Assembly (NCBI GenBank): GCA_963814355.1
Contig: CAWFCZ010000006.1
Coordinates: 190,746 to 254,745, forward strand
DNA length: 64,000 bases
Reading direction: 5' to 3'
From: an uncultured Actinomycetota bacterium
Lineage (GTDB): Bacteria; Actinomycetota; Actinomycetes; JADGOV01
Shown piece by piece: positions 26,773-64,000 of the stretch (position 1 is the first letter of the stretch; each line of letters begins with the position of its first letter). The position numbers and the translations under genes were made by a program. The notes under the pieces were generated by a model. That model worked only from the letters and a program-made list of their open reading frames with translations, did no database searches and was not told where the DNA came from.

Positions 26773-26862
26773 CGCGAATCACCCTTCATCCAGAATCGGA
26801 ATGAACAGGCGATTCTTCGCCGAGCAGGCGCAGCGCTCAGCACGCCGGGAAGCTGGCCCCGA

Positions 26863-26953: not shown

Positions 26954-26985
26954 TGCCGGTTATGGGGAATTCCCCATAAGCGGCA
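26954..26985. repeat. 32-bp 13-6-13 palindrome abutting the RIT-1 end (TGCCGGTTATGGG GAATTC CCCATAAGCGGCA)
   Basis: Read directly. There is one arm mismatch. The outer 6 nt of the right arm (GCGGCA) equals the hexamer found at the other junction (23402-23407). Confidence 0.8.
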
Positions 26986-27196: not shown

Positions 27197-27278
27197 TTAT
27201 GCCGACCTCGCCAAGCCGAACCCCCTGCCCCGCAACGGATCCCGCGACCACAGCGGCATAATCCGAAGATCGGCATAA
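27195..27278. repeat. RIT-2 terminal inverted repeat (ritC side)
   Basis: Exact reverse complement of 22092-22175. Confidence 0.85.
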
Positions 27279-27310
27279 TGCACCTTATGCCGACGTCGGC
27301 ATAAGGTGCA
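27279..27310. repeat. 32-bp perfect 13-6-13 palindrome abutting the RIT-2 end (TGCACCTTATGCC GACGTC GGCATAAGGTGCA)
   Basis: Read directly. The outer 6 nt (GGTGCA) equals the target hexamer at 22086-22091. A second copy lies at 54981-55012. Confidence 0.85.
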
Positions 27311-27681: not shown

Positions 27682-28295
27682 GTGTTCGTTCAGCGGGTGG
27701 TGCTGCCCGACTCGCGGCGTGAATCGTGGACGGTGGTCGGTGATGATGCGGCGCCGATCGAGCCGGTGGAGCGGTATCTGGCGTTCTTGACCGACGTGGC
27801 CCGGTCACCGACACGGTGAAGGCTTACGCGCATGATTTGAGGGACTGGTTCGGGTTCTTGGCCGGCCGGTCGACGGACTGGCGCCAGGTGCGGCTGGAGG
27901 ACGTCGGCGAGTTCGTCGCCTGGCTGCGGCTGCCGCCGGCGGCCCGGGACGGCCGGGTGGCGGTGCTGCCGTCGGTCGGCGGGCATTGCACCGAGGCGAC
28001 GATCAACCGCAAGTTGTCGGCGGTGTCGGCGTTCTACCAGCACTCGGCGCGCAACGGTGTCGAGCTCGGGGACCTGCTGCGGACCTGGCAGCCGGCCGGT
28101 CGTCGCGGCAGCGGCTGGCGACCGTTCCTGCACCACATCAGCAAGGGTCGACCGGCGGCGCGGCGGGCGATCCGGTTGAACAGTGCGCGCAAGCATCCTC
28201 GGGTCCTCGGCCCGACCGAGGTGCAGGCCGTGTTGGACGCCTGTGATCGGCTACGCGACAGGCTGCTGTTCGCGGTGCTTTATGACACCGGGATG
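27682..28295 (+). pseudogene. W recombinase, part 1 (frameshift near 27812), ends at Box I
   Basis: VFVQRVVLPDS...PVERYLAFLTDVARSPT / VKAYAHDLRDWFGFL...DRLLFAVLYDTGM, then the Y terminus. Confidence 0.65.
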
Positions 28296-28414
28296 TTCTC
28301 CAGGGGTCAGCTTGCGTATGGGGCTGCGACTCGGGAGCTTTCCCTTTGCTCATAAGCTGATCGTGGAACGATAGCGTGCGCGACAGGTGTGGTGCAAGAA
28401 CGACCCGCCGGGAG

Positions 28415-28984
28415 TTACCGGTGTCGCGCCGGGGTGTTGAGTTGGGCCATGAGCTCGCGGTTGGCGGCGCGTGCGGCCGCGAGGTCCTGATCGCGTTCGA
28501 CGAGTTGCAGGCGCAGGTCGATGCTCTGCTGCTCGAGGTTGTTGATCTTCTGGTTGAGGGCGTCGAGGTCGGCGGGGACGCCGAGCCCGGACTCGCGCCA
28601 GGCCTGCTCGCCGAGCGTCTCGGACAGGCGGGTTTCCAGTTGCCGGATCCGGCTGGTCAGCCGGACGGCTCGTTCGCCGGCGGCGAGCAGGTCGGCGTGC
28701 AGCGAGGCGCGGGTGACGCCGGGCCCCTGGCCGGTCCCGGCCGGCGGTGGGGTTGCCTCCAGGGCGTGGATCTGGGCGAGCAGGTCGCGGTGGCGGTAGA
28801 GGAAACTGCGATCGACCCCGGCGGCACGGGCGATGCTCGCGGCGCTGATCTCGGTCCCGTCGGTGGCGGCGCGGTTGAGCGCGGCGAGGACGCGTTGGCG
28901 TCGCCGCGTGGAATCGGCTTGCCGGCCTTGTCGCATTGCTGTGGCGCGCTCGCTGTGCTCGGCGGCGGGAGCGTTGCTGGTCAT
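28415..28984 (-). CDS. TnpC-like coiled-coil protein (identical to 16212-16781)
   Basis: Identical 189-aa translation. Confidence 0.7.
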   Translation of the reverse strand: MTSNAPAAEHSERATAMRQGRQADSTRRRQRVLAALNRAATDGTEISAASIARAAGVDRSFLYRHRDLLAQIHALEATPPPAGTGQGPGVTRASLHADLLAAGERAVRLTSRIRQLETRLSETLGEQAWRESGLGVPADLDALNQKINNLEQQSIDLRLQLVERDQDLAAARAANRELMAQLNTPARHR

Positions 28985-31433
28985 GCGGTGGCCTCCGGAC
29001 AGGCGTCGGGCGCGGTCGCCCGGGTGCTGGGCATGCCGAGGAATGCGGCGCGGTGGCGGCGCATCACGGTGACTGCCTCGTCGATGACGGCGCGTTCGGT
29101 GTCACTGGCGTGGCCGAGATCTCCGTCGATGCGGCCGATGAGCCGCCGGATCCGGGTGATCTCCTGCTGGCTGGGGGTGGCGTCGGCGCGGGCCCACTCG
29201 TCGACGCCGTCGATGGCGGCGGCCAGACGTTCACGGGTTTGCAGCAGGTCGTCGAGGTAGAGGGTGAGGTCGGGCAGGTAGGACACGTCGGTGCGGAAGT
29301 GGTCGCAGCCGGCGCAGCGGAACCGGACCGGGCAGGCGCCGCCCCCGGCGGCGACGTTGGACGGCTCGGTGCAGCGTCCGTAGGGGACGGCGACTTCGCC
29401 GACGGCGTAGCGGGCGTGTTCGGAGTCCAACAGGGCGGCGGCCTCGCGCCAGACCCGGTTGCCGTGGCGGTCGAAACTCATCGCGGTCACCGTGTCCACG
29501 GCGGCGCGGCGCCGGTCTTCCCCGACCCGGTAGTACCCCCGGGTGACGTTCAAATTGCGATGATCGAGGAGTTCGGCGAGTACGTCGATCCCGACGCCGG
29601 CATCAGCGTGGCGCTGGGCGTAGCTATGCCGATAGGCGTACGGGACGATCTTGGACTTGTCGAACTCGGCGCCGTCACGGCTATGCAGCGGACCCAACGT
29701 GTCGACCCATCGCCGGTTCCCGTTCAGGGTTTCGCCGTGGCGAGGGCAGCAGTTTCAGCTCACCGGCCGGGGTGGCGGGGAAGCGTTGCTTCACACGCGA
29801 CTGCTGGGCGGTGATCACCGCGGCGGTCGCCTCGTTGATCGGCAGACGGCGCCCGAGCCGGTCGGCTTTGGCGTTGTCATAGACCAACACGGGCCCGCCG
29901 TCTTTGTCACGGTGGAGGCAGTCCAGCGGCAGGTTGAGGAGGTCTTCGGGGCGCCGGCCGGTGTCGATGCCGATCTGGATCGCGGCCTTGAGTTCGGCCG
30001 GCCGCAGGCCGTCCAGGTTCGCGCACAACACCGTCATGATCTCCGGCGGGAGGTCGCGGCCGGGTTCGCCGCGGTGCGCTTCGGCGGGGATGTCGTCACG
30101 CCCGATCGCGAAGTCGCCGGGCAGCCCGGCGGCGACCCGACCGGGCCGGGTCAGGCCCAGGGCGCGGATCCCGGACAGCGCGGCCCGAACGCCGCGGCAG
30201 ATGACGTTGCGGTGGTAGCGGCTGATCGTGCCCGTGGACTCCAGGTAGGCCAGCCGGTTGAGGAACGCCTCGATATCGGGGCCGGTCCAGCCGGTCGGGT
30301 GATAGTCCGTGGTCGTCGCGAACCCGCAGGCTTTCCGACAACCGGGCCACCGCATTGACCTTGATCCGCACGTTGCTGGCCCCGGCGCCGCGATGGCGTG
30401 GCAGTTGCTCACCCGCCCACGCTTTGGCGGCGTACGCCAGCCAGGGCTGGCTGATACCGGTGAACGACAGCCGCCCGCGGTGACCGAACAGAGCCAGATC
30501 CCAGCTGTCGCCGGCCCGCTCACGACCGGGATCGGCCAGCGCGCGGCGGACATCGCAGACGAACGCGGTCAGCAACTGCCGGGCCGGCTTGCCCGCTGTC
30601 ACGCGCTCGGCCGGGCACGCCGCGATCTGGGTCGCCTGCTCACGGCGCAGCATGTTGCAGACCGCCCGCAGCGGCACCTCAACGATCTGCGCGCCGCCGC
30701 GGACCCGCTGCTGAACGCCGAACAACACCTCGACCACCACCAACGGCGCCAATCCGCGCAGGCTCACTTCACCGCCCTGCGAGACCGCCGGCTGGGTCAG
30801 CTGCCAGTGCCGCTGGTCGGCAACGGGATCGGTGGTGACCGTGGTGCGCCACCGCACGTAATGGGTCGCGCAGTAGCCATGTTCGGATTCGGCGCGGCGG
30901 CTGCAAGCGGCGACCCGGCAGGGTCCCAGCGCGGGCAGCGGACGCAGCCGCGGGTCGGTAAGGAACTGCTCCAGCGAGACACCCGCTGTGCGACGCAGCC
31001 GGCGCTGATGCGGCACGCACAATGTCGAGCGCGGGATCGGTGACATGCGCTCACAACCGGGCACCGCACAGCCGGCCGGTCGACGCGTCGGCAACGATGG
31101 CAGCTCGGGTGACGCCGCGATCTGCTGCTCGCTCAGACCCTGCGCACCCAACCGGGTGAAGCAGTGCCAGCACAGCCCGCCGGTCCTGCCATGCATGGTC
31201 GTCGAACAGCCGCCCACCCGACACAGCGGCCGGCCCAGCAACGGATGCGCGGCCGGCAGCGACAGCACCCGCGTCACCGGGTCCCAGCCGGCCTCGATGA
31301 GAAACCCACACTCGAGCAGGCCAGCCAGGCGCGCGGCCGGACCGTCCAATCCCACCCCGGCCAGCACGTGGTCGAAGACAACCGCGGCCGCGGCCGCGGA
31401 TCGTGTCGTCGCGGCCGACGCGGCGCCGCTCAC
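28981..31433 (-). pseudogene. TnpB-like large tyrosine recombinase, two frameshifts (identical to the copy in X)
   Basis: Same three ORF pieces as 13763-16215. Confidence 0.75.
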
Positions 31434-32602
31434 CGGGGCACCCCGGCCTGCTCGCGCGGGCCGGGCACCAGGTCCACCGCGGCCCGCAGCCGCGCCGGGT
31501 CCGGATGCAGATACACCTGAGAGGAGGACACCGAGGCGTGACCGAGCAGGTCGGCGACCACGTCGAGACCGCAGCCGGCATCAGCGGCGTTGCTACCGAA
31601 GGCGTGCCGCAGTTGGTGCGGACGCAACGCCTGCGCCAGCCCGGCCCGTCGCGAGGCACCGGCGAGCAGCTCACCGATCGCGTCCGGGCGCATCGGCGCA
31701 CCGAGCGGAGCCCGGAACAGGTTCACCAGCACGAAATCACCGTCCGCAGCCTGCGGCACACTCATCCGCTCGAACACGTAGGTGTCGAATGCCTGCACGG
31801 TGAGGACGTCCAACGGCACGCTGCGCTGCCGGCGCGACTTCGCCCACGCCCCGTTCGGATTGCCCTCACGACGCAGCACATGCAGATGCGCCCGAGCGAC
31901 CCCGCAACCCAACGCTCCGGAGTCGGCGAGCAGGTGCACGTCGCTACGACGCAGCCCGCACACCTCGCCGCGGCGCAACCCGGCCCGGGCCATCAGCAAC
32001 ACGATCAGCCGGTCCCGCGCCGAACGGCAGGCGTGCAGCACGGCGACGATGTCAATGTCACTGGCCCGCTCGACCGGACGTTCCGGCTCATGCAGGCGGT
32101 GCCGGGCCCGCATCCGCCACGACATCCGCCCGTCGCCGTCGCGGGCAGCCTCGGGCAGGTCTCGGTCCCCGGCCACCTCATACAACAGCGCGAGCAGATG
32201 CCCGCCCGCCTGCCCGACGACGACCGCATGCACCACCATCTCGCGCACCGCGCTCAGCACGCCGTTGACCCGCCGGGCCCCGCGCACCGGGACGCTGCCC
32301 GGCCCGGCCAGCACCGCCGTGGCAGTCTCCCCGCCCGAGGCGGACAGCCCTGCATAGGTCAACCACGTCATGAACAGCGCCAGCTGTTCGGCCCCGGCCT
32401 GCCAGCTGCGCCCGGTCCGCGCGCACCAGCGCAGGAACAACGCGATCGAGTTCGCGTAACTCTTCGTCGTCGACTCCGCACCATCGCGGCCGAAACGCAC
32501 ATGCCGCAGGAAACCGTCAGCGACCGGCACGACAGCCAGGTCCTCGTCCAGCACAGTCCAGTACCTCGCGCCGGACGGCAACCTCACTGGGAACGCCCGC
32601 AT
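31430..32602 (-). CDS. TnpA-like tyrosine recombinase
   Basis: ATG 32602 follows GGGAGGATCGAAGG. MRAFPVRLPSGARYWTVLDEDL...ARAGLRRGEVCGL...HQLRHAFGS...LLGHASVSSSQVY. Confidence 0.8.
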   Translation of the reverse strand: MRAFPVRLPSGARYWTVLDEDLAVVPVADGFLRHVRFGRDGAESTTKSYANSIALFLRWCARTGRSWQAGAEQLALFMTWLTYAGLSASGGETATAVLAGPGSVPVRGARRVNGVLSAVREMVVHAVVVGQAGGHLLALLYEVAGDRDLPEAARDGDGRMSWRMRARHRLHEPERPVERASDIDIVAVLHACRSARDRLIVLLMARAGLRRGEVCGLRRSDVHLLADSGALGCGVARAHLHVLRREGNPNGAWAKSRRQRSVPLDVLTVQAFDTYVFERMSVPQAADGDFVLVNLFRAPLGAPMRPDAIGELLAGASRRAGLAQALRPHQLRHAFGSNAADAGCGLDVVADLLGHASVSSSQVYLHPDPARLRAAVDLVPGPREQAGVPR

Positions 32603-38748: not shown

Positions 38749-38947
38749 TGCCCGGCGCCGTCTACGAATGCGCCGGGTGCGGCGAGCGGATGCTCGAGCG
38801 CCGGTGCGAAGACTGCAACCAGTTCACCCGCAAACTCGGCCCAGGAGGGCCGTGCCCAGCCTGCGACGAGGCGATCCTCGTGGCAGAGCTACTCGACCAG
38901 AACCAAGATCAACCGGTGCCCGCTTACACAGGAAAGTTGACAAGCTC
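38748..38947 (+). CDS. Small zinc-ribbon ORF carried by IS256; it is still open at the IS terminus
   Basis: The ATG overlaps the transposase stop (TGATG). YECAGCG..RCEDCN..GGPCPACDE. There is no stop codon before the IS end at 38947. Confidence 0.5.
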
Positions 38948-39824
38948 TGGACCGGCGCCGGTCATGCGGTATCGGCGCGGACGGTGGCCAACCTGCTGAA
39001 GGAGTCCGGGTACAGCTTGCAGGCGAACATCAAAACCCTCGAAGGCGCCCAGCATCCCGACCGGGACGCCCAATTCGGTTATCTCAACGCCCAGGCGGCA
39101 CAGTTTCAGGCAGCCGGTGATCCGGTGATCAGCGTCGACACGAAGAAGAAGATGCTGATCGGCAACTTCGCCGCTGCCGGTCGGGAATGGGAACCCGCCG
39201 CTGCGCCGAGGAAGAGGAATGTGCACGACTTCCCCGACCCGGCACTGGGCAAGGTCGCCCCCTACGGGATCTATGACATCACCACCAACACCGGCTGGGT
39301 CAACGTCGGTACCGACGCCGACACAGGACAGTTCGCGGTCGAATCGATCCGTCGCTGGTGGACCGAGATGGGCAAGGCCGTCTATCCCAGCGCGGCACAG
39401 CTGTTGATCACCGCGGACTCCGGTGGAATCCAACGGCTCCCGGCTACGGCTCTGGAAAACCGAACTCGCCACCCTGGCCACCGAAGCCGGGCTGACCATC
39501 ACCGTCTGCCACCTCCCACCCGGGACCTCGAAATGGAACAAAATCGAGCACCGGCTGTTCTCCGCGATCAGCCGAAGCTGGCGCGCCCGGCCCCTGGAAT
39601 CCCACGAAGTGGTCATCGAAACCCTCAAGGCCGTCACCACGAAGACCGGGCTCACCGTGCACGCCGAACTCGACACCAACACCTACCCCCGCGGCATCAA
39701 GATCCCCAACCAAGACATGAAAACCCTCGAAACAAAAGGAATCCTCACCCGCCACGATTTCCACGGCGACTGGAACTACTCCCTCACGCCCGACACCACG
39801 ACACTCCCGACACAACCCACCTAA
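38948..39824 (+). pseudogene. ISAzo13-family transposase, 5'-truncated and frameshifted near 39420
   Basis: ...SGYSLQANIKTLEGAQHPDRDAQF.YLN...ISVDTKKK..IGNF...HDFPDP.LGK..PYGIYD...NTGWVNVGTD.DT..FAV.SIRRWW...ITADSGG / SNGSRLRLWK.EL..LA.E.GL.I.V.H.PPGTSKWNKIEHRLFS. Confidence 0.7.
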
Positions 39825-39849
39825 AAACTGCGCGAGACCTAAGCACCGC

Positions 39850-41231
39850 ATCGCCGAGGATTACCTGCGCGAGCACACGGTCGGCGTTGGGGTGTTCTTG
39901 ATCCTGGTGGCCCGGGCTCCGGCGCCGGTGTGGAAGGTCGCCCGCACCGCCGCCGGGGTGATCCGCAACCTGGAGAAGACCCGGCAGTTCGTCAACCACT
40001 ACTCCTTCCACATCATGGACCCCACCTGGGGCCACGTGACGATCAAGATGAGCGGGCATCCGCCGTTCGGCGCGCAGGTGATCCTCAACGGCCACGAGTA
40101 CGTCGCCTGCGCCGGTCAGTCGGCGGGCATCGGCTTCGTCCAGGAGGGGAACTGTTTCACCCGGGTCGATGACCCCGCACGCCTGGCTCAGGTCGCAGAC
40201 ACCTTGTCCCAGCCCGGGACGATAGGGCGCCTGAGCCAGGTCATCGACCGGTGGATCTACACCGCGTGCCTGTGCTTCGGACTCGACCGCGCCGAGCAGG
40301 AACGCAGCGGCTTCGGCTACGGCTACTCGATCTACCAGGTCGAGTACAGCCGTAACCTGCTGTTCGCCTCCGGCGCGGTGATGGACCGGATCTTCGACGC
40401 GGTGGTGGACCGCACCCGGTCCCGGCTGGACTTGCCGAAGGTGCGCACGCTGTTCGGCAGCAAGGGCCGTCCGCACCGTAAACCCGGCGCCGAACTGTCA
40501 CCTCGGCAGGCGGTCGTGATCGAGAGACCTCGGTGGGACCTGACCATCTTCAAAGTCCACTTCGGGCTGTTGACGTTGAAGGGGTACACCAAAGGCGAAC
40601 ACGTCCTGCGCTTCGAGGCCATCGTGCACAACACCAGACAGCTCGGCTGCGGCCGGGTGCTCGCGCGCTTCCCCGAGATCGTCGGTCGACTGGCCGGGAT
40701 GGTCGACCGGTTCACCAGCATGCTGGACTGTGTCGACGTCGGCTTCATCCCGGACGGTGTCCTCGACCAGCTGCCGTTGCCCTCCCAGATCGGGGCGACC
40801 CGAGTCGGAGGCGTCGACGTGAACAAGACCCGCATCCGCGCGGCGCTCGCCGCCGTGCTCGCGTTGGCGGTGGCGCCCGAGGGTTCACCGTCGCCCAATT
40901 CGCCGCCAAGGTACAAACCATGACAGGGCAGACCGACGCCGACTACACCAGCCGCCAAGGTGCCTACGACCTGCGCAAGCTGCGCGGCAAACAGCTCGTC
41001 GTCAAACCCGGCCGGAGCCGGCGCTACCACGTGCCAGCAGCCGCCGCCCGCACCATCGCCGCGCTACTCACCCTCCGCGACAAGGTCATCGCGCCGCTGC
41101 TGGCAGGAGCCCGCATCCCGCGACGGGGACGGCCGCCCACTACCCTCACCCGCGTCGACCGCGACTACGAAGCGCTCCAGACCGGTATGCAGACCCTCTT
41201 CCGCGATCTCGGCATCGCCGCAGCCGCATAA
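39850..41231 (+). pseudogene. Uncharacterised transposase-like protein, 5'-truncated, frameshift near 40880
   Basis: FVNHYSFHIMDPTWGHVTIKMSGHPPFGAQVILNGHEYVA... and, in a second frame, FTVAQFAAKVQTMTGQTDADYTSRQGAYDLRKLRGKQLVVKPGRSRRYHV...RVDRDYEALQTGMQTLF. From memory this is a recurrent actinobacterial family, but I cannot name it. Confidence 0.4.
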
Positions 41232-53672: not shown

Positions 53673-54005
53673 ATGCCTGCATCAAGGAAGTACGACGGGG
53701 AGACCCGCGCCCGAGCGGTGCGGATGTATCGGGACCGGCTCCGCGACCCTGGTGAGTCGATGGTGGCCGCCCGCCGTCAGGTCGGGGCGGTACTGGACAT
53801 CAACCAGGCCACGCTGCGGAACTGGATCGAGCGGGAGGAGCGGGAGGAGGTCGACAGTGGTGCTCGTGCGGGGGTGACGAGTGAGGAGTCAGCGGAGTTG
53901 AAAGCGCTGCGTCGTGAGGTCTCGGAGTTGCGCCGGGCGAATGAGATCCTCAAGACAGCGTCGGCGTTTTTCGCTCAGGCGGAGCTCGACCGCCGACTCA
54001 AGTGA
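53673..54005 (+). CDS. IS3 OrfA
   Basis: 110 aa. Near-identical to 12689-13012, with a 3-aa EER insertion. Confidence 0.8.
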   Translation: MPASRKYDGETRARAVRMYRDRLRDPGESMVAARRQVGAVLDINQATLRNWIEREEREEVDSGARAGVTSEESAELKALRREVSELRRANEILKTASAFFAQAELDRRLK

Positions 54006-54258
54006 TCGTCGCCTACATCGACGGTTACCGTGCCCGCTTCGGGGTCGAGCCGATCTGCCGGGTGCTGACCGAACACGGCATGCAGATCGCCCCCAGTACC
54101 TACTACGCCGCGGTGAAGACCCGGGTGTCGGCGGCGGAACTCGCCGACGCCTACCTCGTCGACGCTGTGGTGGACCTGTACCGGGTGAACCGCAGTGTTT
54201 ACGGGGTGCGCAAGCTGTGGCGGGAGATGCGCCGCGCCGGGCATGACGTCGGCCGCGG
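54002..54258 (+). pseudogene. IS3 OrfB, N-terminal 85 codons
   Basis: IVAYIDGYRARFGVEPICRVL...RKLWREMRRAGHDVGR, then the IS256 end. Confidence 0.8.
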
Positions 54259-56141: not shown

Positions 56142-56148
56142 AGGTGCA

Positions 56149-56232
56149 TTATGCCGATCTTCGGATTATGCCGCTGTGGTCGCGGGATCCGTTGCGGGGC
56201 AGGGGGTTCGGCTTGGCGAGGTCGGCATAATC
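56149..56232. repeat. RIT-2 terminal inverted repeat (ritA side), copy 2
   Basis: Identical to 22092-22175. Confidence 0.85.
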
Positions 56233-56280
56233 CGGTGAGTTGATCGACGCTTGCCTCTTCCGTCTGGAGAGGAGAGCGTC

Positions 56281-57501
56281 ATGGTCAAGGTGTTGTCGTC
56301 GTTCGTGCGCGGGCCGTTGGAGCGACACGTCACGGGATTGGCCGAGGAACTGCTGCGGCAGGGCTATTCGGGGACCTCGGCCGCGCAGCATGTGTGTTTC
56401 ATCGCCCATCTGGATCGCTGGATGAGCGCCGAGGACGTCGAGATCGGCGGCTTGAGCGGTCCGGTCATCGAGCGCTATCTCGCGCGGCGGCGCTCGGCGG
56501 GCTATGTGCAGTACCGGTCGGTGAGAGCGCTCCGGCCGCTGTTGGACTTCCTCGCGCCGCTTGGCGTATTGCCGGTCGCGTCGCTGGTTCCGCCGGGCCC
56601 GGTAGAGGGACTGCTTGTCCGCTACCGCGATTACCTGGTCGGTGAGCGCGGCCTGACGCAGGGGACTGCGCGCGGCTACGTGGACTTGGTCCGCCCGTTC
56701 GTCGCCACCCGCGCCCACGGCGACGTGCTCGACCTGACCGGGATCACGGCGGCAGACGTCAACGGCTTCGTGCTGTCGGCCTGCCCGGGTCGGGCTGTCG
56801 GGTCGGCGAAGCTGATCGTCTGCGCGCTGCGGTCGCTGCTGCGCTGGCTGCACTTGACCGGGCAGATGTCGGTATCGCTGGCGAGCGCGGTGCCGTCGGT
56901 GGCGGGCTGGCGATTGTCGAGCCTGCCGACGGGCTTGGAACGGGGAGAGCTGCGCGGGCTGCTCGGCTCGTGTGATCGGCGCACCCGCACTGGGCGTCGG
57001 GACTACGCGATGATGCTGCTGCTGTCCCGGCTCGGGCTGCGCGCCGGGGAGGTCGCCCGCCTCGGGCTGGACGACATCGACTGGCGACGCGGCGAGATCG
57101 CAATCCGCGGCAAGGGCAACCGCGCCGAACGGCTGCCGCTGCCGGCCGACGTCGGGGCGGCGATCACGGCCTACCTGCGCGCGGGCCGGCCGACCACCGC
57201 CGAGGGCCGCAGCGTGTTCGTGCGGGTGCACGCCCCGCACCGGGCGCTGACCACGGGCGGGGTCACCGAAGTCGTCTTCGACGCCGCACAGCGCGCGGGG
57301 CTGCCCAAGATGTACGCCCATCGGCTCCGGCACACCGCCGCGACCGCGATGCTTGCCGCCGGCAGCCCATTGCCCGAGGTCTGGCAGGTGCTTCGGCACC
57401 GGTCGATGCTGAGCACGGCGATCTACGCGAAGGTCGACCGCACCGCGTTGGCCGTGCTGGCCAGACCCTGGCCACTCGACCCGCGCGGCGGTGTGTCATG
57501 A
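56281..57501 (+). CDS. ritA: Tyrosine recombinase RitA of RIT-2 (intact)
   Basis: ATG 56281 follows GGAGAGGAGAG. SRLGLRAGEVARL, AHRLRHTAATAM, VLRHRSMLSTAIY. Confidence 0.8.
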   Translation: MVKVLSSFVRGPLERHVTGLAEELLRQGYSGTSAAQHVCFIAHLDRWMSAEDVEIGGLSGPVIERYLARRRSAGYVQYRSVRALRPLLDFLAPLGVLPVASLVPPGPVEGLLVRYRDYLVGERGLTQGTARGYVDLVRPFVATRAHGDVLDLTGITAADVNGFVLSACPGRAVGSAKLIVCALRSLLRWLHLTGQMSVSLASAVPSVAGWRLSSLPTGLERGELRGLLGSCDRRTRTGRRDYAMMLLLSRLGLRAGEVARLGLDDIDWRRGEIAIRGKGNRAERLPLPADVGAAITAYLRAGRPTTAEGRSVFVRVHAPHRALTTGGVTEVVFDAAQRAGLPKMYAHRLRHTAATAMLAAGSPLPEVWQVLRHRSMLSTAIYAKVDRTALAVLARPWPLDPRGGVS

Positions 57502-57560
57502 CCGCCCCGCTGCGCGAGCGGCTGGCCGACTACCTCGCGCTGCGACGGGCGCTTGGTTAC
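57498..57560 (+). pseudogene. ritB: RitB of RIT-2, first ~21 codons only
   Basis: The ATG overlaps the ritA stop (ATGA). MTAPLRERLADYLALRRALGYRL resembles the RitB N-terminus of RIT-1. The break point is approximate. Confidence 0.5.
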
Positions 57561-57719
57561 CGGCTAACTAACGGGGCTTCGCCCCAGCCCGACGAGCGGT
57601 GTGCGCGCGGGTGCGGGGCGTAGGCTCCGGTCGCGGGTCTCACGGGAAGCGTGCTTCCCGTGATTGACCGCTCGAGGCGGTGGGGTGGCCCGTGGGCCGA
57701 CTCACGACCGGAGCTTGCT

Positions 57720-57794
57720 ATGACGGTAGCCCGAAGTGTCGCCGATGTCTTGGCCGAGCACGTGAGTTTCGAGGTGGAGTGCATCGACCGGTTG
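57720..57794 (+). pseudogene. Transposase-like ORF, exon 1 (25 codons) upstream of the twintron
   Basis: MTVARSVADVLAEHVSFEVECIDRL, then GTGCG. The reading frame resumes at 63925. Confidence 0.55.
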
Positions 57795-58163
57795 GTGCGC
57801 CACGAGGCGCTGGTGCGCCGTGAGGCGCTGGAAACCGAAGGAGGTGCAAGTCCTTCTCGCCGGGTTGTCGCAGCAGCCCGGTAGGAGCTGAGCGCAGTCC
57901 GAGCCGGGAGACGCCGGGGAGGGCGGGAAGCAGCGCTGACAAAGCCGGGACGGCCTGGTACTGCCAGACGGGTCGGGCCCGGCGAGCGAGATCAGACGGT
58001 ATACGAGAGTGGACTTTCGCACTTTCCCGATGATGGCTGGCTGATGTAGCGCCGGGGTTGCCGGTGCTGGCTTCGCGCGAGACACACCCCCCTTGATCCG
58101 TGATTCGGCGCCTGCGTCGCGAGACCCTCTGTCTGCGTAAACGCAAACAGAGAGAAGAATGGC

Positions 58164-58493
58164 ATGGCCATGTCGAACACACCGCCCAAGGGGACACCGC
58201 AGCTGCTGCGCGGATCCCTGGTGACGCTGCGCCGCCGGTGCGGCAAGGCGAGCTGCCGGTGCGCCGATGGGCAGGCACTGCACGAAGCGCCGGCGTTGAG
58301 CTACTCCGAGAATGGGCGGACTCGGATGCTGACGCTGGCCGACACCGACGTGCCGGGCGTGGCCGCGGCGCTGGAGCGCTACCGGGCCGCGCAGTCCGAG
58401 CTGGAGGGCAAAGCCAACTCCGGGCTGGTCGCGCTGGGCAACAAGATCGCCGCCGACCGGGCCGCGGGCCGCCGCCCGCGGCGGGGCCGGTGA
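58164..58493 (+). CDS. Small accessory protein with a CGKxxCxC motif
   Basis: LLRGSLVTLRRRCGKASCRCADGQALHEAPALSYSENGRTRMLTL. Its stop overlaps the GTG of the transposase (GTGA). Confidence 0.5.
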   Translation: MAMSNTPPKGTPQLLRGSLVTLRRRCGKASCRCADGQALHEAPALSYSENGRTRMLTLADTDVPGVAAALERYRAAQSELEGKANSGLVALGNKIAADRAAGRRPRRGR

Positions 58494-59776
58494 CCGGGTG
58501 GACGGCGCTGCTGGAAGGCACCCGCACGGTGTTCCGCGCGCCCAGCTTCGCCCTGTTCACCGAGCTGCTCACCGGCTGGGTGTGCGCGCCCGGCCGGCGC
58601 ACCATCACCGCGATGATCGCGGTCGCCGACCCGGCCGGGCGCCGCGCCCACGACGCCTACCACCGGTTCGTCCGCGACGGCGCCTGGAGCATGAGCCGGC
58701 TCTGGCAGGTGCTGGCCGGGCACGCGGTCGCCAGGTTCGCCCCCACCGGGGTGATCGCCCTGGACTGTGACGACACCCTGTTCCACAAGACCGGAACCCA
58801 GGTCAACGGTGCCGGGATCTTCCGGGACGCGGTGCGCTCCACGCTGCGCCGCGTCGTCTACGCGCTCGGGCTCAACCTGGTCGTGGTCACCCTACGGGTC
58901 CCCCCGCCGTGGGGCGGGGGCCCGATCGCCGTCCCGGTCAACGCCCGGCTGCACACCAAGCGGGACACCACGACCACCGCCGGGCACGCGGCCGCGATGA
59001 TCCGCGAGCTCGCCGGATGGCTACCGGACCGGCGGCTGCACCTGTGCGCGGACGGCGCCTACGCCTGCCTGGCCGGGGCCGGCCTGCCCCGCACCCAGGT
59101 CACCTCCCGGATGCGCCGCGACGCCGCCCTCTACCAGCCCGCACCGCCGCGCACCGGCAAACGCGGGCGGCCCCGCACCAGGGGCGACCGGCTACCCACC
59201 CCGACCGAACTGGCCGCGCAGGCCGGCAAGAGGGACTGGGCCACGGTCACCGTCGACGAGCGAGGCAAACCCGTGCCACGCCTCGTCCACGTCCTCGACG
59301 TGCTCTGGTACGCGGTCAACAAGACCGACCTGGTCCGGCTGGTCATCATCCGCGACCCGACCGGGGTGCAACCCGACGACTTCTTCCTCACCACCGACCT
59401 GGCCGCCACCGGCGCTCAAGTCGCCTCCCGCTACGCCGGACGCTGGTCCATCGAGGTGTGCTTCCGCGACGTCAAACAGGCCCTCGGCGGGGAGAACCCG
59501 CAGTCCTGGAAACGCGCCGGCCCCGAACGAGCCGCCGCCCTCTCGCTGTGGCTCCACGGACTCACCTGGTGCTGGTACCTCGAAGCACACCCGGCCGGCG
59601 GAACCTGGATCCCCCGACCCTGGTACCGGACCAAGGCCACCCCCAGCTTCCTCGACGCCCTCGCCGCGCTACGCAGAACCCTGTGGGCACAACGAATTAC
59701 AGCCATGTCAGCCAGCGAAGCCGAGAACCACAAAATCAACGAGGCACTGCTGGACACGGTCGCCTACGCGGCATGA
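58490..59776 (+). CDS. DDE transposase, IS701/IS4-like
   Basis: FRAPSFALFTELLTGWVCAPGRRTIT, IALDCDDTLFHKTG, LCADGAYAC, RYAGRWSIEVCFRDVKQ. Confidence 0.6.
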   Translation: MTGWTALLEGTRTVFRAPSFALFTELLTGWVCAPGRRTITAMIAVADPAGRRAHDAYHRFVRDGAWSMSRLWQVLAGHAVARFAPTGVIALDCDDTLFHKTGTQVNGAGIFRDAVRSTLRRVVYALGLNLVVVTLRVPPPWGGGPIAVPVNARLHTKRDTTTTAGHAAAMIRELAGWLPDRRLHLCADGAYACLAGAGLPRTQVTSRMRRDAALYQPAPPRTGKRGRPRTRGDRLPTPTELAAQAGKRDWATVTVDERGKPVPRLVHVLDVLWYAVNKTDLVRLVIIRDPTGVQPDDFFLTTDLAATGAQVASRYAGRWSIEVCFRDVKQALGGENPQSWKRAGPERAAALSLWLHGLTWCWYLEAHPAGGTWIPRPWYRTKATPSFLDALAALRRTLWAQRITAMSASEAENHKINEALLDTVAYAA

Positions 59777-60210
59777 GCCCACGCGGACACTGCGAAACTC
59801 CACCGAGAGGAACCAGTGGTAAAGCTCCGTAAGCGTGGCACCGGCTCAAATCTGGTGGATATGGGCCGGGGTGCAGTGCGTGGTCATCCGCGGTGGATGG
59901 CCGACTCCGTAGCCGGCTTGGCGTGCCGGTGGGGAGGCCACGGTGAAAGCCTGCGGCGTAACCGTGGCGATGCTGCCGGGGCAAAGCTGGGTGCCAAGCT
60001 GATCGATCGGTTTGCAGTGAACACGGGAACCATCCCGTGCCGTTCCGGTCGCCCGGAATCCATCCGGGCCGTCGGGATAGACACGTCGTCGGTTGAAGGC
60101 GCGGGATGGGGCGGAGGCTCCGTAGTAGTCCGAGCGGGCGAGAAGCCCGCACATGGCGAAGGGAGCCAGCAAGTCAGCAGCCGAAGTACTGGAATGCCAG
60201 GAGGCCGTTG

Positions 60211-61629
60211 GTGAACACCGACGATCCGGATAGCGCTCTGCCGCAAGCAGAACGCCGGGTACTGGAGATCCAGACCAAGCTGCACCGTTGGGCCAGTGAT
60301 GACTCTCATCGCCGGTTCGATGATCTCTATAACCTTGTCGCCGATCCCGCGTTCCTGCTGGTCGCGTGGGGTCGGGTGCGGGGTAACAGGGGTGCACGCA
60401 CCGCCGGGGTGGACGGCGAGACCGCCCACTACATCGAGGCGGTGCGTGGGCTGCAGGGGTTTCTGTCCGAGCTGCGGGCTGATCTCAAGGCCGGCACGTT
60501 CGAGCCTCTGCCGGTGCGGCGACGCGCGATTCCCGAGGCAGGCGGCAAGCTGCGCTATCTCGGGATCGCGACCATCCGTGACCGAGTAGCCCAGGCGTCC
60601 TTGAAGCTGGTGTTGGAGCCGATCTTCGAAGCGGATTTTCTCCCGTGCTCCTACGGGTTCCGTCCGAACCGCCGGGCGCATGACGCGGTGGCCGAGGTGC
60701 ATCACTTCGCGTCCCGCTCCTACGAGTGGGTCGTCGAGGGTGACATCAAAGCCTGTTTCGACGAAATCTCGCATTCGGCCCTGATGGATCGGGTGCGCGA
60801 TCGGGTCGGTGACAGACGGGTCCTGGGCCTGGTGAAGGCGTTTCTGAAAGGTGGCATCCTTACTGAGGACGGCACGCTTTCAGATACCGACGCCGGCACC
60901 CCGCAAGGGTCGATTCTCTCCCCGTTGCTGAGCAACGTGGCCTTGTCGGTCCTGGACGAATACATCGCCCAGGCACCTGGAGGCCCCGCCGCCAGCGCGT
61001 ATGAACGGGCCAAGCGTCGCCGTCAGGGTCTGCCCAACTACCGGCTCTGCCGGTACGCGGACGACTGGTGCCTGGCAGTGTCGGGCACCAGGGCGCACGC
61101 CGAAGCCCTGCGGGAAGAGATCGCCGGGGTCCTCGCCGGGATGGGCCTGCGCCTGTCACCGGAGAAGACCCTGATCACCCACATCGATGAGGGCCTCGTC
61201 TTCCTCGGCTGGCGCATCCAGCGCCACCGTAAGCGGGGTACCGGCAGGAGCTACGTCTACGTCTATCCGGCCAAGAAGGCGCTGGTCGCCGTCATGGCCA
61301 AGGTGAAGACACTCTGTCGACAGAGCACGAACCTGCCGCTCGATGTCCTGCTACATCGGCTCAACCGGATGCTGCGGGGCTGGACCGCGTACTTCAAGTA
61401 CGGCTGCTCGAACGCGACCTTCAGCTACCTGAGGTCCTACCTGTGGAAACAGGTCATCAGGTGGCAGGAGCGCAAGCATCGGCGCACTGGCTGGAAGGAG
61501 TTGCGCCGACGCTACGGCAGATGGCCCGCCGACGGTGGCGTGGAACTGTTCGACCCGGCGAGGGTGCGCGCGAAGCGCTACTACTACCGGGGAGCCCGAA
61601 TCCCGACACCCTGGCCGAGCACAGCATGA
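60211..61629 (+). CDS. Group II intron reverse transcriptase/maturase (inner intron IEP)
   Basis: GTG follows AGGAGG. RT blocks: IPEAGGKLRYLGIATIRDRV, SYGFRPNRRAHDA, TPQGSILSPLLSNV, RYADDWCL. Maturase region: LGWRI...RGWTAYFKYG. No HNH tail. Confidence 0.9.
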   Translation: MNTDDPDSALPQAERRVLEIQTKLHRWASDDSHRRFDDLYNLVADPAFLLVAWGRVRGNRGARTAGVDGETAHYIEAVRGLQGFLSELRADLKAGTFEPLPVRRRAIPEAGGKLRYLGIATIRDRVAQASLKLVLEPIFEADFLPCSYGFRPNRRAHDAVAEVHHFASRSYEWVVEGDIKACFDEISHSALMDRVRDRVGDRRVLGLVKAFLKGGILTEDGTLSDTDAGTPQGSILSPLLSNVALSVLDEYIAQAPGGPAASAYERAKRRRQGLPNYRLCRYADDWCLAVSGTRAHAEALREEIAGVLAGMGLRLSPEKTLITHIDEGLVFLGWRIQRHRKRGTGRSYVYVYPAKKALVAVMAKVKTLCRQSTNLPLDVLLHRLNRMLRGWTAYFKYGCSNATFSYLRSYLWKQVIRWQERKHRRTGWKELRRRYGRWPADGGVELFDPARVRAKRYYYRGARIPTPWPSTA

Positions 61630-62370
61630 GATGCACCGCAAAACCCCACGGGGCTTGTGGAGAGCCCGGTGCGCTGTGAGGCGCACGCCGGGTTCGGGAG
61701 GCGACACGGGGAAACCCACCGGTAGCAATGCCGGCAGGGCGCCCCGTGTCGACCTCACTGTGTTCGAGTGGAGGTGAGAGACCTGCACCGTCAGGCCGTC
61801 GCAGCGGTCTGATGAAGCTGGGGGCAGTCCGATCCGGGGGACGCCGGTGAGGGCGGCAAGCAGCCCCGACAACGACGGGATGCGTCGGTACTGCCAGACG
61901 ACGCAGGTCCGGCAAGCAAGGCCAGAAGGCGTACGCGAGGAACCAACGTGTAACGCCCCGTAAGCGATGCGCCGGCTCCAACCTGGCGGATATGGGCCGG
62001 GGTGCAGCGCACGGCCCCTTCGTGAATGTGGGGGGGTCGACTCCGAAGCCCGTTAATTCGGCGGGTCAGGAGGCCGCGTCGAAGGTCTGCGGCGTAGGCG
62101 CGGCGAGGCTGCCGGGGCAAAGTTGGGCGCCCATCCTGGCCAATCGACATGCAGTGAACGTGGGAACCAGCCGAGGTCGCCCGTTCCCCGGCCAGCCAGG
62201 CCGATGGGCGGGCAGGTTCGTCGCCGACTGATGGTCTCGGGTGGGGCGGAGGCCCCGTAGTAGTCGCGGGAATCACGAACCCGTCGCGGAGTCCGGGAGA
62301 GCCGGATGCAGGGCGAAGGGGGCCAGCAAGTCAGCAGTCGAGGAACTGGAAGACCAGGAGGAGGACGTAG

Positions 62371-63798
62371 GTGAACACCGACGTGCTGGAGCAGGCTAAG
62401 TTCGACGCCGAGCGCCGGGTACTGGAGATTCAGACCAAGCTGCACCGTTGGTCGGCGGCTGATGCTGGGCGCCGATTCGACGACCTGTACAACCTCGTCT
62501 GCGATCCGGCCTTCCTGCTGGTGGGCTGGCTTCGCGTGCGGGCCAATAAGGGTGCGCGCACCGCTGGGGTGGACGGTCAGACCGCCCGCTATATCGAGGC
62601 GGTGCGCGGGGTGGAGGAGTTCCTCACGGAACTGCGGTCGGCGTTGAAAGACCGCAGCTTCCAGCCTCTGCCCACGCGTCAGCGGGCGATTCCCAAGGCG
62701 GGCGGCAAGCTCCGCTACCTGGGGATCGCGACTATCCGCGACCGCGTGGTGCAGGCGTCCTTGAAGCTGGTGTTGGAGCCGATCTTCGAGGCGGACTTCC
62801 AGCCGTGCAGTTACGGCTTCCGCCCGAAGCGCCGGGCACACGACGCGGTGGCCGAGGTGCGCCACCTCACCTCCCACTCCTATGAGTGGATCGTTGAGGG
62901 CGACATCAAGGCCTGCTTCGACGAAATCTCGCATCCGGCCTTGATGGATCGGGTGCGGGCACGCGTCGGGGACAAACGCGTACTGGCCCTGGTGAAGGCG
63001 TTCCTCAAAGCGGGCGTCCTCGATGAGGATCGTGTGCTGCGAGACACCGATGCCGGCACTGCGCAAGGGTCGATCCTTTCGCCGTTGCTGAGTAACGTGG
63101 CCCTTTCGGTGCTCGACGATCACATCGCCCGAGCACCGGGCGGGCCCGCGATCAGCCTCTACCGCCGCGCGAAGCGCCGCGCCCACGGTCTGCCCAACTA
63201 CCGGCTGGTCCGGTTTGCGGACGACTGGTGCCTGATGATCTCCGGCACGCGGGCTGACGCGGAAGCGCTGCGGGAGGAAACGGCGGACGTCCTCGCGACG
63301 ATGGGCTTGCGCCTCTGGCCGGAGAAGACGCTGATCACCCATATCGACGAGGGCCTGAACTTCCTGGGCTGGCGCATCCAACGTCACCAGAAGAAGGGCA
63401 CCAACCGGCGCTACGTTTATACCTACCCGTCCAAGAAGGCCCTTGCGGCCATCCAGGACAAGGTACGCGCGTTGTGCCGACAGGGCGTCAACCTGCCGCT
63501 GGCAGTTCTGCTGCATCGGCTCAACCAGGTGCTGCGGGGCTGGACCGCCTTCTTCCGGCACGGCGTGTCGCATGCCACCTTCCAATACCTGCGCGCCTTC
63601 ACCTGGCGGCAGGTCTTCAGATGGTTGCGACGCAAACACCGCCGGGCCAACTGGAAGGATCTCCGCCGCCGCTACTGCGGCGGCGGGTGGTGGCCGCGAG
63701 ACGGCGAGATGACGTTGTTCAATCCCGGCGCGGTGCGCACCAACTGGTACCGGTACCGGGGAACGGCGATCCCCTCCCCGTGGCCCAGCGCGGCGTGA
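62371..63798 (+). CDS. Group II intron reverse transcriptase/maturase (outer intron IEP)
   Basis: Same block structure, with RFADDWCL. By eye roughly three-quarters identical to the inner IEP. Confidence 0.9.
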   Translation: MNTDVLEQAKFDAERRVLEIQTKLHRWSAADAGRRFDDLYNLVCDPAFLLVGWLRVRANKGARTAGVDGQTARYIEAVRGVEEFLTELRSALKDRSFQPLPTRQRAIPKAGGKLRYLGIATIRDRVVQASLKLVLEPIFEADFQPCSYGFRPKRRAHDAVAEVRHLTSHSYEWIVEGDIKACFDEISHPALMDRVRARVGDKRVLALVKAFLKAGVLDEDRVLRDTDAGTAQGSILSPLLSNVALSVLDDHIARAPGGPAISLYRRAKRRAHGLPNYRLVRFADDWCLMISGTRADAEALREETADVLATMGLRLWPEKTLITHIDEGLNFLGWRIQRHQKKGTNRRYVYTYPSKKALAAIQDKVRALCRQGVNLPLAVLLHRLNQVLRGWTAFFRHGVSHATFQYLRAFTWRQVFRWLRRKHRRANWKDLRRRYCGGGWWPRDGEMTLFNPGAVRTNWYRYRGTAIPSPWPSAA

Positions 63799-63924
63799 AC
63801 ATCATCGTCACCAACGGGGCTTGTGGAGCGCCCGTTGCCCGGGAACGGGCACGGCGGGTGCGGAGGGCGGTCCGGGGAAACGGGCTGGTCGCAAGGCCAG
63901 CACCGCGCCCCGGACCGACCCTAC

Positions 63925-64000
63925 GTGCTCAACGCCTACTTCCCGCTGGGGCACAGCCCTGGTGGGTTCCGGGTGTGGTGGCGGAGATGGCATGACGACA
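63925..64000 (+). pseudogene. Transposase-like ORF, exon 2 (continues beyond the window)
   Basis: VLNAYFPLGHSPGGFRVWWRRWHDD, in frame with exon 1 (…ECIDRL|VLNAY…). Confidence 0.5.

Follow-up and report, generated by a model that had tools for sequence, protein, structure and literature searches.

A group II twintron in an uncultured actinomycete, its inner intron apparently from a clade that homes to the 5' end of other introns

In Thermosynechococcus elongatus, ORF-less TeI3/F3 introns confined to one genome lie within TeI4/F1 introns, at a domain IV site flanked by the first and second ATGs of the intron ORF, with the outer ribozyme left intact; the inner copies are alike and the outer copies diverged, targets are recognized mainly by EBS/IBS pairing, and TeI4g is also broken by an insertion sequence (IS) (Mohr et al., 2010; PMC2882425). 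The locus described here resembles this system in its apparent homing into a conserved intron site, its IS-broken intron and its EBS/IBS recognition; the site, however, lies between nt 18 and 19 of domain I, adjoining the 5' splice site, the inner intron has an RT/maturase ORF of its own, and the habit extends across many actinomycete genera, soil metagenomes and several host-intron types. In Methanosarcina acetivorans, repeated site-specific homing into group II introns has been described (Dai & Zimmerly, 2003, as summarized in PMC4424553), that summary treating the nested arrays as a 'perpetual homing site' kept in balance by recombination among the copies. Those introns are archaeal and have flanks without coding exons, whereas our outermost intron lies in a protein-coding gene. 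Their homing sites are said, in the title of the original report, to lie in related intron ORFs; the target here is instead the 5'-terminal 18 nt of the ribozyme.

For a twintron in a protein-coding gene of Trichodesmium erythraeum, sequential splicing has been shown (Pfreundt & Hess, 2015; PMC4649490). Ours is likewise a bacterial twintron within a protein-coding gene, but the Trichodesmium twintron occupies one locus, in a host gene that is conserved, and its splicing has been demonstrated, whereas here the host gene is multi-copy and uncharacterized and an IS splits the inner intron. In Euglena chloroplast twintrons the internal intron must be removed first, because it interrupts an essential part of the external ribozyme (Copertino & Hallick, as cited in PMC4424553). 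Our inner intron also breaks an essential part of the outer ribozyme; the Euglena elements, in contrast, are organellar, mostly degenerate and ORF-less, and are not known to make up a single lineage directed to one conserved site. RmInt1 of Sinorhizobium exemplifies the bacterial IIB-like introns that lack an endonuclease domain and home into IS genes. Our introns resemble that group in having a protein of RT and X domains only, in recognizing the target through EBS1, EBS2 and EBS3, and in the apparent IS transposase genes that house relatives of the outer intron; read from their flanking codons, these look like IS3-, IS110-, IS256- and ISAzo13-type transposases.

The window, a 64,000-nt stretch from an uncultured Actinomycetota bacterium, contains the following nested elements.

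57720-57794 (+): 5' exon (MTVARSVADVLAEHVSFEVECIDRL), the opening 25 codons of a gene in 'family A' (about 537 aa)
57795-57812 (+): outer intron nt 1-18, with 5' splice site GUGCG and a local hairpin GCGCC-ACGA-GGCGC; also the putative inner homing site
57813-58008 (+): inner intron nt 1-196, 5' part of domain I
58009-59803 (+): IS701-family IS, 1795 bp, with CGAGA duplicated at 58004-58008 and 59804-59808
59809-61758 (+): inner intron nt 197-2146, 3' end ..GACCUCAC
61759-63924 (+): outer intron nt 19-2184, 3' end ..GACCCUAC
63925-64000 (+): 3' exon (VLNAYFPLGHSPGGFRVWWRRWHDD), truncated where the window ends, from a 'family B' gene paralogous to family A

The first-pass annotation had proposed a twintron in which the inner intron, itself split by an IS, lies between nt 18 and 19 of the outer one; our analysis agrees with this nesting order, and every coordinate proved exact to the base. 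Joining 57795-57812 to 61759-63924 gives an outer intron of 2184 nt, and joining 57813-58008 to 59809-61758, once the IS is taken out, an inner intron of 2146 nt; the two reassembled introns align end to end with 74.5% identity. Both begin with GUGCG and end in ..AC, and each has an intron protein, a domain V and a domain VI bearing a bulged A. At the 5' junction GTGCGCCACGAGGCGCTG (57795-57812) directly abuts GTGCGCCGTGAGGCGCTG (57813-57830), GTGCGCCRYGAGGCGCTG being matched only twice in the window (0 expected from 100 shuffles), and the downstream outer part lacks 18 nt only. Since the two 18-mers differ at just 2 positions and such an 18-mer precedes inner-type introns, the arrangement might be read as a tandem duplication of the inner 5' end beside a 5'-truncated copy posing as the outer intron. 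We consider this explanation, already raised in the first-pass annotation, extremely improbable: the outer remainder begins exactly at nt 19, the 18-mer shows complementarity to inner EBS2 and EBS1, which would be expected of a target but not of intron sequence, its type changes together with the intron that continues past the inner 3' end, and single-copy outer relatives join the 18-mer directly to the sequence seen from 61759. The source genome was absent from the loci returned for comparison, all relatives being from other genomes; more than 50 (about 70) single-copy relatives are colinear with the reassembled outer intron from its first nucleotide, the outer 18-mer is identical to the first 18 nt of many of them (L023, L033, L037, L050, L075 and L078), and one on Streptomyces plasmid NZ_CP109267 reads GTGCGCCACGAAGTTCTG-TGTGATCGAGTGGAGGTG unbroken.

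The twintron is further defined by the coding and ribozyme features below, TIGR04416 being the group II RT/maturase model.

58164-58493 (+): IS orf1, DUF6788
58490-59776 (+): IS transposase, NF049999 IS701 family transposase (288 bits against a cut-off of 170)
60211-61629 (+): inner RT/maturase ORF, RVT_1 and GIIM, passes TIGR04416
61662-61695 (+): inner domain V, AGC triad
61752 (+): inner branch A, domain VI
62371-63798 (+): outer RT/maturase ORF, RVT_1 and GIIM, passes TIGR04416; FADD variant
63828-63861 (+): outer domain V, CGC triad with compensating partner
63918 (+): outer branch A, domain VI

In the outer intron protein Pfam reported RT and maturase (X) domains only, and no endonuclease domain. 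The 34-nt domain V hairpins with a 2-nt bulge, as first described, do fold so in both introns, each being followed by a domain VI with its bulged A at position -7. Rfam recognized the inner DV-DVI alone (61660-61758, 49.9 bits), and its D1-D4 models gave no match even at E ≤ 1. The earlier account of a 1,795-bp IS that splits inner domain I and is flanked by a CGAGA duplication was likewise borne out; the element has terminal inverted repeats GTGGAsTTTCGCA, is inserted ~25 nt upstream of inner EBS2 and occurs at the 58009 site in none of the relatives.

In order to place EBS1, EBS2 and EBS3 we used covariation across 54-56 relatives. EBS2 was fully complementary to exon positions -14 to -9 in 40/56 introns (against 1.4% of mismatched intron-exon pairings), an EBS1 loop carried a 6-nt complement of exon positions -6 to -1 in 19/56 (against 4%), and EBS3 was Watson-Crick with +1 in 46/54. 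Pairings could thereby be identified for both homing sites, as the first-pass annotation had suggested.

57781-57786 (+): outer IBS2 GCATCG, in the 5' exon
57790-57794 (+): outer IBS1 GGTTG, in the 5' exon
57799-57804 (+): inner IBS2 GCCACG, in the outer 18-mer
57807-57812 (+): inner IBS1 GCGCTG, in the outer 18-mer
59834-59839 (+): inner EBS2 CGTGGC
59919-59924 (+): inner EBS1 TGGCGT
59984 (+): inner EBS3 A
61965-61970 (+): outer EBS2 CGATGC
62054-62058 (+): outer EBS1 TAATT
62120 (+): outer EBS3 A

The outer 18-mer suits the inner intron at each of these three elements: EBS2 CGUGGC is complementary to outer nt 5-10 (GCCACG), EBS1 UGGCGU pairs with nt 13-18 (GCGCUG), three G-U pairs included, and EBS3 A pairs with nt 19 (U). 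The outer EBS1-IBS1 pairing is weak, with 5 bp of which 3 are G-U. In two variant inner-type introns (L038 and L052), EBS1 UGCGAU and EBS2 CGUGUC compensate for a differing host 18-mer, GTGCGACACGAAGTCGCw.

The same junction recurs widely. All eight inner-type introns with 5' context in actinomycete genomes have an intron 18-mer in front, and three more with 3' context only are followed by the host-intron continuation; nesting after nt 18 of another intron was seen in 11/11 informative copies, from Streptomyces, Nocardia and Nonomuraea genomes and from Streptosporangiaceae and Pseudonocardiaceae MAGs. Among the metagenome matches listed, 97 of 110 contexts (81 of 93 distinct) are nested likewise, in a scan whose pattern required an inner-type 5' end and whose fractions describe the sampled contexts only. 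About 12% of the listed contexts are not clearly intron 18-mers; some start CUGCG, UUGCG or AUGCG and not GUGCG, with intron identity confirmed for some. As in the Methanosarcina arrays, three or more 18-mers are stacked in at least two metagenome contigs (L089 and L197). The 18-mer type tracks the continuing intron, GTGCGACACGAGGTCGCA occurring with CATGTGCGAGTGAAC.. and GTGCGCCGCGAGGCGCTG with TGTCGTATCCCC.., and the host introns fall into at least three types; proteins of the host introns in L030, L038, L052 and L060 are merely 29-36% identical to the outer protein, indicating that several intron types have been invaded. The inner-type proteins, on the other hand, group in a single clade and share 85-89% identity with the inner protein of the window.

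A single ectopic insertion at a target look-alike, with no specialization for introns, is a reading to which group II introns lend themselves, as they do retrotranspose to ectopic sites; the outer clade itself targets IS genes and other genes, and the G-U pairs at the window's IBS1 also suit it. It is nevertheless very unlikely given that the nt 18 junction recurs with differing exons and hosts in the genomes and metagenomes above, that the inner-type proteins are monophyletic, that a second kind of host 18-mer is matched by covarying changes in EBS1 and EBS2, and that GTGCGCCACGAGGCGCTG is the commonest target, in 28/74 listed contexts whose 18-mer starts GTG[CT]G. Spread of one ancestral twintron as a unit is opposed by the upstream exons and host introns, which are not identical among these contexts. 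The comparative evidence indicates that the whole clade of the inner intron regularly homes to nt 18/19, which contradicts the earlier view of a singular frozen accident.

The host ORF was said to resume in frame after 6130 bp. The frame does resume, at a junction position that suits both families, but the two exons come from different ones. The 5' exon and the 150 nt before it match family A, DNA at 57567-57790 aligning at 70% with family A locus L082, and full-length family A homologues (P0047-P0166) start MTVARSV..C[IV]DRM and read ..C[IV]DRM|YCNVYVPQLQ across the junction. Family B reads ..CVDRI|VLNAYFPLGHSPGGFRVWWRRWHDD, and its locus L084 shares 85.5% DNA identity with the 3' exon. A search with the spliced 50-aa peptide gave 46 proteins, not one of which had both halves. 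By these alignments the host ORF is chimeric, its 5' exon coming from family A and its 3' exon from family B. Outer EBS3 (A) predicts U at +1, where family A would have TAC and the window has G; as 8/54 relatives mismatch too, this is only suggestive of a swapped 3' exon. The description of the ORF as transposase-like found no support in Pfam, NCBIfam, PDB sequence or fold searches. Two features lie upstream.

56142-56232 (+): 91-bp repeat, also bounding a three-recombinase block at 22086-27284
56251-57501 (+): intact tyrosine recombinase gene

Together they may form the left end of a RIT-like element, the rest of which would lie beyond the window. Of the RIT-2 context given in the first-pass annotation the window shows only this part, with no recombinase trio on this side. 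Near-identical repeats crowd the window.

An assembly artefact of repeated intron copies might account for the nesting, or at least for the exon join: the chimera falls exactly at the intron borders, near-identical repeats occur throughout, and many genomes carry the family's introns in multiple copies, at several loci each. We consider this unlikely. The inner/outer junctions are reproduced independently in many unrelated assemblies, so the nesting itself appears to be real biology; the two introns, at ~75% identity, are too divergent for simple repeat collapse; and real recombination between nested copies has been described in Methanosarcina (PMC4424553), which the window's chimeric exons fit. 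Homologous recombination is most likely the route of the 3' exon exchange, an assembly join across repeated introns being the alternative.

Our preferred reading, to which we assign a probability of about 0.88, is a group II twintron assembled through successive insertions of mobile elements, with an inner clade that homes to the 5' 18 nt of other introns. The outer intron would first have retrohomed into a family A gene after ..GCAUCGACCGGUUG, as its EBS/IBS fit suggests. The inner intron, from a sister clade, would then have retrohomed into a DNA copy of the outer one between nt 18 and 19, finding its site by RNA-DNA base pairing; the complementarity is observed, and reverse splicing is presumed from the established retrohoming mechanism. 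Next in the proposed order, an IS701-family element transposed into inner domain I, duplicating CGAGA, and the 3' exon would have been exchanged for that of a paralogous family B gene, most probably by homologous recombination with an intron copy at the equivalent family B site.

With its 5' splice site 3.9 kb from its ribozyme, the outer intron would splice only after removal of the inner one, which the IS probably blocks; it is a reasonable inference that the inner intron is probably dead and the outer dependent on its removal. Both RT/maturase ORFs are intact and could act in trans. Twintrons formed by homing into a conserved intron site were already known from Thermosynechococcus and Methanosarcina; what is new here is that the target is the 5' end of the host intron, and with these conserved 18 nt as the normal homing site, each dispersed host intron would be a fresh target.

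The outer intron occupied positions 57795-57812 and 61759-63924, with the inner intron (57813-58008 and 59809-61758) inserted between its nucleotides 18 and 19, such that the first 18 nt of the outer intron (the 18-mer) stood alone upstream of the inner one. The junction reads as follows.

57777-57836, + strand: end of the 5' exon, outer 18-mer and start of the inner intron, reading ..GAGTGCATCGACCGGTTG / GTGCGCCACGAGGCGCTG / GTGCGCCGTGAGGCGCTGGAAACC..

Within the window the only matches to GTGCGCCRYGAGGCGCTG were the two 18-mers, where none would be expected by chance. The reassembled outer intron (2184 nt) and the inner intron (2146 nt) could be aligned end to end at 74.5 % identity, and excision of 57813-61758 restored an intron of 2184 nt that was colinear with single-copy relatives and had neither lost nor gained a base. 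Both ends of the inner intron were complete, and its point of insertion fits its own exon-binding sequences (EBSs). When the two intron proteins were searched against a single genome of each species, 80 loci were obtained, the best match to the window being a metagenome-assembled genome (MAG; 85 %), and ∼70 of these aligned colinearly with the reassembled outer intron from nt 1. The best plasmid match, from Streptomyces sp. NBC_01643, carried the outer-type intron uninterrupted, as GTGCGCCACGAAGTTCTG-TGTGATCGAGTGGAGGTG, within an IS3 transposase gene. As this copy is uninterrupted and ∼70 loci are colinear from the first nucleotide, the split of the outer intron is, on these alignments, placed correctly to the base. 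A tandem duplication of the 18-mer, which the first-pass annotation had named as the possible undoing of its reading, was ruled out, as single-copy relatives join the 18-mer straight to the rest of the outer intron; its observation of an intron nested within an intron was confirmed, with the outer split and the inner removal exact against relatives, and its central interpretation as a twintron was right. That the inner intron would splice before the outer one we infer solely from the position of the insertion. A separate relative of the outer intron, in Streptomyces sp. NPDC020379 (locus L022, ∼1475-3951), contained an insertion of ∼2.5 kb between nt 525 and 579.

Both elements displayed the features of group II introns. 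Each begins with GUGCG and ends in AC, in agreement with the GUGYG/AY rule and aligning at its ends with >50 relatives; in each, domain V measures 34 nt and contains a 2-nt bulge (fold z-scores of −4.3 and −3.8) and domain VI carries a bulged A at −7, seven nucleotides from the end. The intron ORFs were intact, encoding within domain IV a reverse transcriptase (RT)/maturase with RVT_1 and GIIM domains (TIGR04416, 356 and 350 bits versus a cut-off of 300). The nearest solved structures to these proteins were the group II intron RTs 6ME0, 5G2X and 6AR1, and comparison with solved intron proteins was uninformative regarding intron class, with CL, ML and IIC RT matches about equally distant. At its active site (63208-63219), the outer RT has FADD in place of YADD, a variant found in just 3 of 53 family members. 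The Rfam search proposed in the first-pass annotation gave matches in part: the inner domain V-VI region reached the gathering score of RF00029 (49.9 versus 40), whereas in 57500-64000 at E ≤ 1 neither the outer domain V-VI region nor a D1-D4 model for either intron was detected. We attribute the failure of the Rfam Intron_gpII model to match the outer domain V to its triad, which is CGC, with a compensating G on the other strand, instead of AGC. CGC was present in 24 and AGC in 23 of the 47 scored relatives (L001-L081), always with the matching partner base; as about half of the family carries CGC, this comparison identifies it as a family trait and not as decay.

Membership of class C (IIC) was considered on account of the hairpin target and the CGC domain V. 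Class C ribozymes are smaller, lack EBS2 and insert behind a stem-loop using just a short IBS1/IBS3; here, the EBS2-IBS2 pairing was strongly supported and the non-coding RNA part of the introns measured ∼750 nt, and the assignment was rejected. IIC-like hairpin targeting as the main mechanism was likewise rejected because the EBS2 pairing is clear, although the hairpin in the target 18-mer may still matter. The first 18 nt of the introns fold as GCGCC-NNNN-GGCGC, a hairpin that other host introns keep through the compensatory change GCGAC..GUCGC, and a search for a distal partner of nt 9-20 (a long-range stem versus the local 5' hairpin) returned none that was consistent. A string very similar to this hairpin, GUGCGCUGUGAGGCGCAC, also lies in the inner domain V (61669-61686).

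In order to locate the EBSs, domain I of 54-56 introns at many different sites was aligned, and columns complementary to the flanking exons were sought. EBS1 was scored on the hairpin loop alone, an earlier version using a 70-nt region having been non-discriminating (control rate 47 %).

Exon-binding sequences in aligned domain I, with the position paired and the rate of pairing
EBS2: 6 nt in ..GUAAG-NNNNNN-ACCGG..; exon −14 to −9; full complement in 40/56, mismatched pairings 1.4 %
EBS1: loop of a GCCGG/CCGG hairpin; exon −6 to −1; 6-nt complement in 19/56, control 4 %
EBS3: one base, flanked as GGGGYA-N-AGCUGG; 3' exon +1; Watson-Crick pair in 46/54

All three were found in both introns, and the inner set fits the outer 18-mer plus nt 19, a target that can be written as GTGCGCCACGAGGCGCCA followed by T. 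Inner EBS2 (CGUGGC, 59834-59839) pairs with outer nt 5-10 (GCCACG, 6/6), EBS1 (UGGCGU, 59919-59924) with nt 13-18 (GCGCUG, 6/6, comprising three G-C and three G-U pairs) and EBS3 (A, 59984) with the U at nt 19 (1/1). Two relatives of the inner intron lying behind the 18-mer GTGCGACACGAAGTCGCw carried matching changes, with EBS1 UGCGAU and EBS2 CGUGUC. For the outer intron, EBS2 (CGAUGC, 61965-61970) pairs perfectly with GCAUCG of the 5' exon (6/6), EBS1 (UAAUU, 62054-62058) pairs weakly with GGUUG (5/5, three of them G-U), and EBS3 (A, 62120) mismatches the G that now follows the intron.

Relatives of the inner intron (inner-type), recognized by the 5' end GTGCGCCGTGAGGCGC, the 3' end GGGyCGACCUCAC or both, numbered twelve among the genome loci, and derived from Streptomyces, Nocardia and Nonomuraea genomes as well as from Streptosporangiaceae and Pseudonocardiaceae MAGs. 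Of these, the eight with 5' context all lay behind the first 18 nt of another intron; in a further three, with 3' context only, a host intron continued after the 3' end, and one lay at a contig end. Intact inner-type copies include those in Streptomyces bluensis JCM 4729 (locus L024) and Streptomyces sp. NPDC006602 (L032). Using the inner-type 5' end as the sole pattern, with the upstream sequence unconstrained, we retrieved at least 120 metagenome contigs, most of which, among the matches listed, bear soil-type JGI sample identifiers. Contexts with at least 48 nt upstream were scored for an 18-mer core within two mismatches of either of two intron 5'-end consensuses, and an intron 18-mer was present in 97 of 110 contexts, or 81 of 93 distinct ones, among the matches listed. 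Several of the remainder were further motif variants or lay inside domain I of another intron. At two loci, L089 (∼4404, − strand) and L197 (∼4231), three or more 18-mers were stacked in tandem before the inner-type intron, a sequence arrangement that indicates nesting to a depth of three or more at one and the same position.

The exons upstream of inner-type contexts differed widely, and the host introns were of at least three kinds, with host proteins in four loci sharing just 29-36 % identity with the outer protein. The inner-type proteins grouped as one clade in a neighbour-joining tree, at 85-89 % identity to the inner copy in the window, whilst sister clades target IS and other genes. 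Judged by these contexts, the clade of the inner intron normally homes to position 18/19. A further reading, at a probability of roughly 0.6, makes the inner intron a representative of a widespread actinobacterial clade of RT-encoding 'introns of introns' that would home regularly, and perhaps obligately, to the conserved 5'-terminal 18 nt (GUGCG plus a short hairpin) of other group II introns of several structural types. On this reading, as the target adjoins the host 5' splice site, mutational escape may be closed to the host, which could not splice before its parasite. No description of a clade homing to the 5' 18 nt of its host was found in the part of the literature covered, and the clade is probably undescribed.

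The IS that splits the inner domain I (58009-59803, 1795 bp) has inverted ends GTGGAsTTTCGCA and a 5-bp CGAGA duplication, and encodes a DUF6788 protein and a transposase (NF049999, 288 bits versus a cut-off of 170; Pfam DDE_5); by transposase, inverted repeats and target duplication alike it belongs to the IS701 family. By an RNAalifold consensus prediction, the IS sits within an internal loop, ∼25 nt 5' of EBS2. A 1.8-kb insert at this location would probably block folding of the inner intron, in which case the outer 5' splice site would stay apart from the outer ribozyme. The twintron in the window is most likely inert, such that its effect on the cell would be small; both intron proteins, being intact, could act on other copies.

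As to the interrupted gene, the first-pass annotation had the intron site and reading frame right, but the two halves that it joined come from different families. The spliced 50-aa peptide matched 46 proteins in two groups, one sharing its first half (MTVARSVADVLAEHV.FE..CIDR[ML] YLNVY..) and the other its second (..SYDCVDRI VLNAYFPLGHSPGGFRVWWRRWHDD), and none of the 46 had both. At the DNA level, 57567-57790 was 70 % identical to a locus of family A, the host-gene family of the 5' exon, and 63925-64000 was 85.5 % identical to a locus of its paralogue, family B. Full-length family A proteins (∼537 aa) read DRM/YCNVYVP across the intron site (slash), which is homologous in both families and hence preserves the frame. 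By these comparisons the ORF is a chimera and not one gene. The outer EBS1 and EBS3 suit the family A site better than the family B site. An assembly join across repeated introns is an alternative source of the chimera; we prefer the reading that intron copies at equivalent sites of the two paralogues recombined, which would place the crossover downstream of EBS3. Recombination between nested intron copies has been described in Methanosarcina (PMC4424553).

The description of this gene as transposase-like was not supported, there being no sequence match for the family in Pfam, NCBIfam or PDB, and an AlphaFold model (mean pLDDT 58) giving only weak Foldseek matches to MarR/ArsR-type winged helices (best E-value 0.05), which we attribute to its better-modelled C-terminal part. 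Family A comprises at least 8000 clusters, many on contigs of ∼2 kb, multi-copy behaviour that suggests mobility of the host gene; the family (5' exon 57567-57794; loci L082 and L083; proteins P0047-P0166) looks like an unclassified mobile element. Elsewhere in the window, a distant paralogue of the superfamily (39892-41231; 24 % identity over 230 aa) adjoins, and may be interrupted by, an ISAzo13-type ORF (38768-39901; DDE_Tnp_ISAZ013).

The twintron is preceded by a 91-bp repeat (56142-56232) and then an intact tyrosine recombinase (56251-57501); the repeat also borders a three-recombinase block (22086-27284). A RIT-like outermost host is on this account plausible, and its remaining two recombinases would fall beyond 64000. 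At least seven tyrosine recombinases were present in the window (22194, 23508(−), 25510(−), 31433(−), 33132, 34316 and 56251), with one on each arm of a 3.8-kb inverted repeat of 99.9 % identity (13073-16909 and 28288-32123). Two ALIL pseudoknots (53963-54094, +; 12600-12731, −), known as IS3-family frameshift signals, mark two copies of one IS that are 97 % identical in DNA. A full-length match to Rfam group-II-D1D4-4 (5517-5651, +; 90 bits, E-value 1.5 × 10−18) is flanked by a sugar-transferase gene (3818-5314) and by an ORF (5877-7130) that matches GH42 weakly. The three neighbouring ORFs that were scanned showed no RT domain, and the match may represent an ORF-less or orphan group II-like RNA within a polysaccharide locus.

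Insertion into a conserved site of other introns, as an evolved habit, has precedents in Thermosynechococcus elongatus, whose inner introns lack an ORF and occupy a site in domain IV (PMC2882425), and in Methanosarcina acetivorans, there as nested arrays (PMC4424553); a spliced bacterial twintron has been reported from Trichodesmium (PMC4649490). The system described here resembles those of Thermosynechococcus and Methanosarcina in its working, by homing into a conserved intron site, but differs in its target, the first 18 nt of the host intron, in having an inner intron with an RT gene of its own, and in a wide spread across actinomycetes and several host intron types. Bacterial twintrons have been described as rare (PMC4649490), with twintrons and other multi-intron sequences making up ∼4 % of entries in a 2013 GenBank intron-pipeline test set (PMC4028801), and the outer partner often escapes automated intron finders (PMC8919778). 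For annotation, an orphan 18-nt 'GTGCG..' preceding an intron should be regarded as the mark of a split host intron. The clade found from this locus makes twintrons reproducibly, at a single defined position, and is present in numerous actinomycete genera as well as on at least 120 metagenome contigs; it deserves a proper census and a test of mobility. It offers a natural system for hierarchical splicing and for the parasitism of one retroelement on another, as well as a case for study of a target site kept constant by the catalytic needs of the host element itself.
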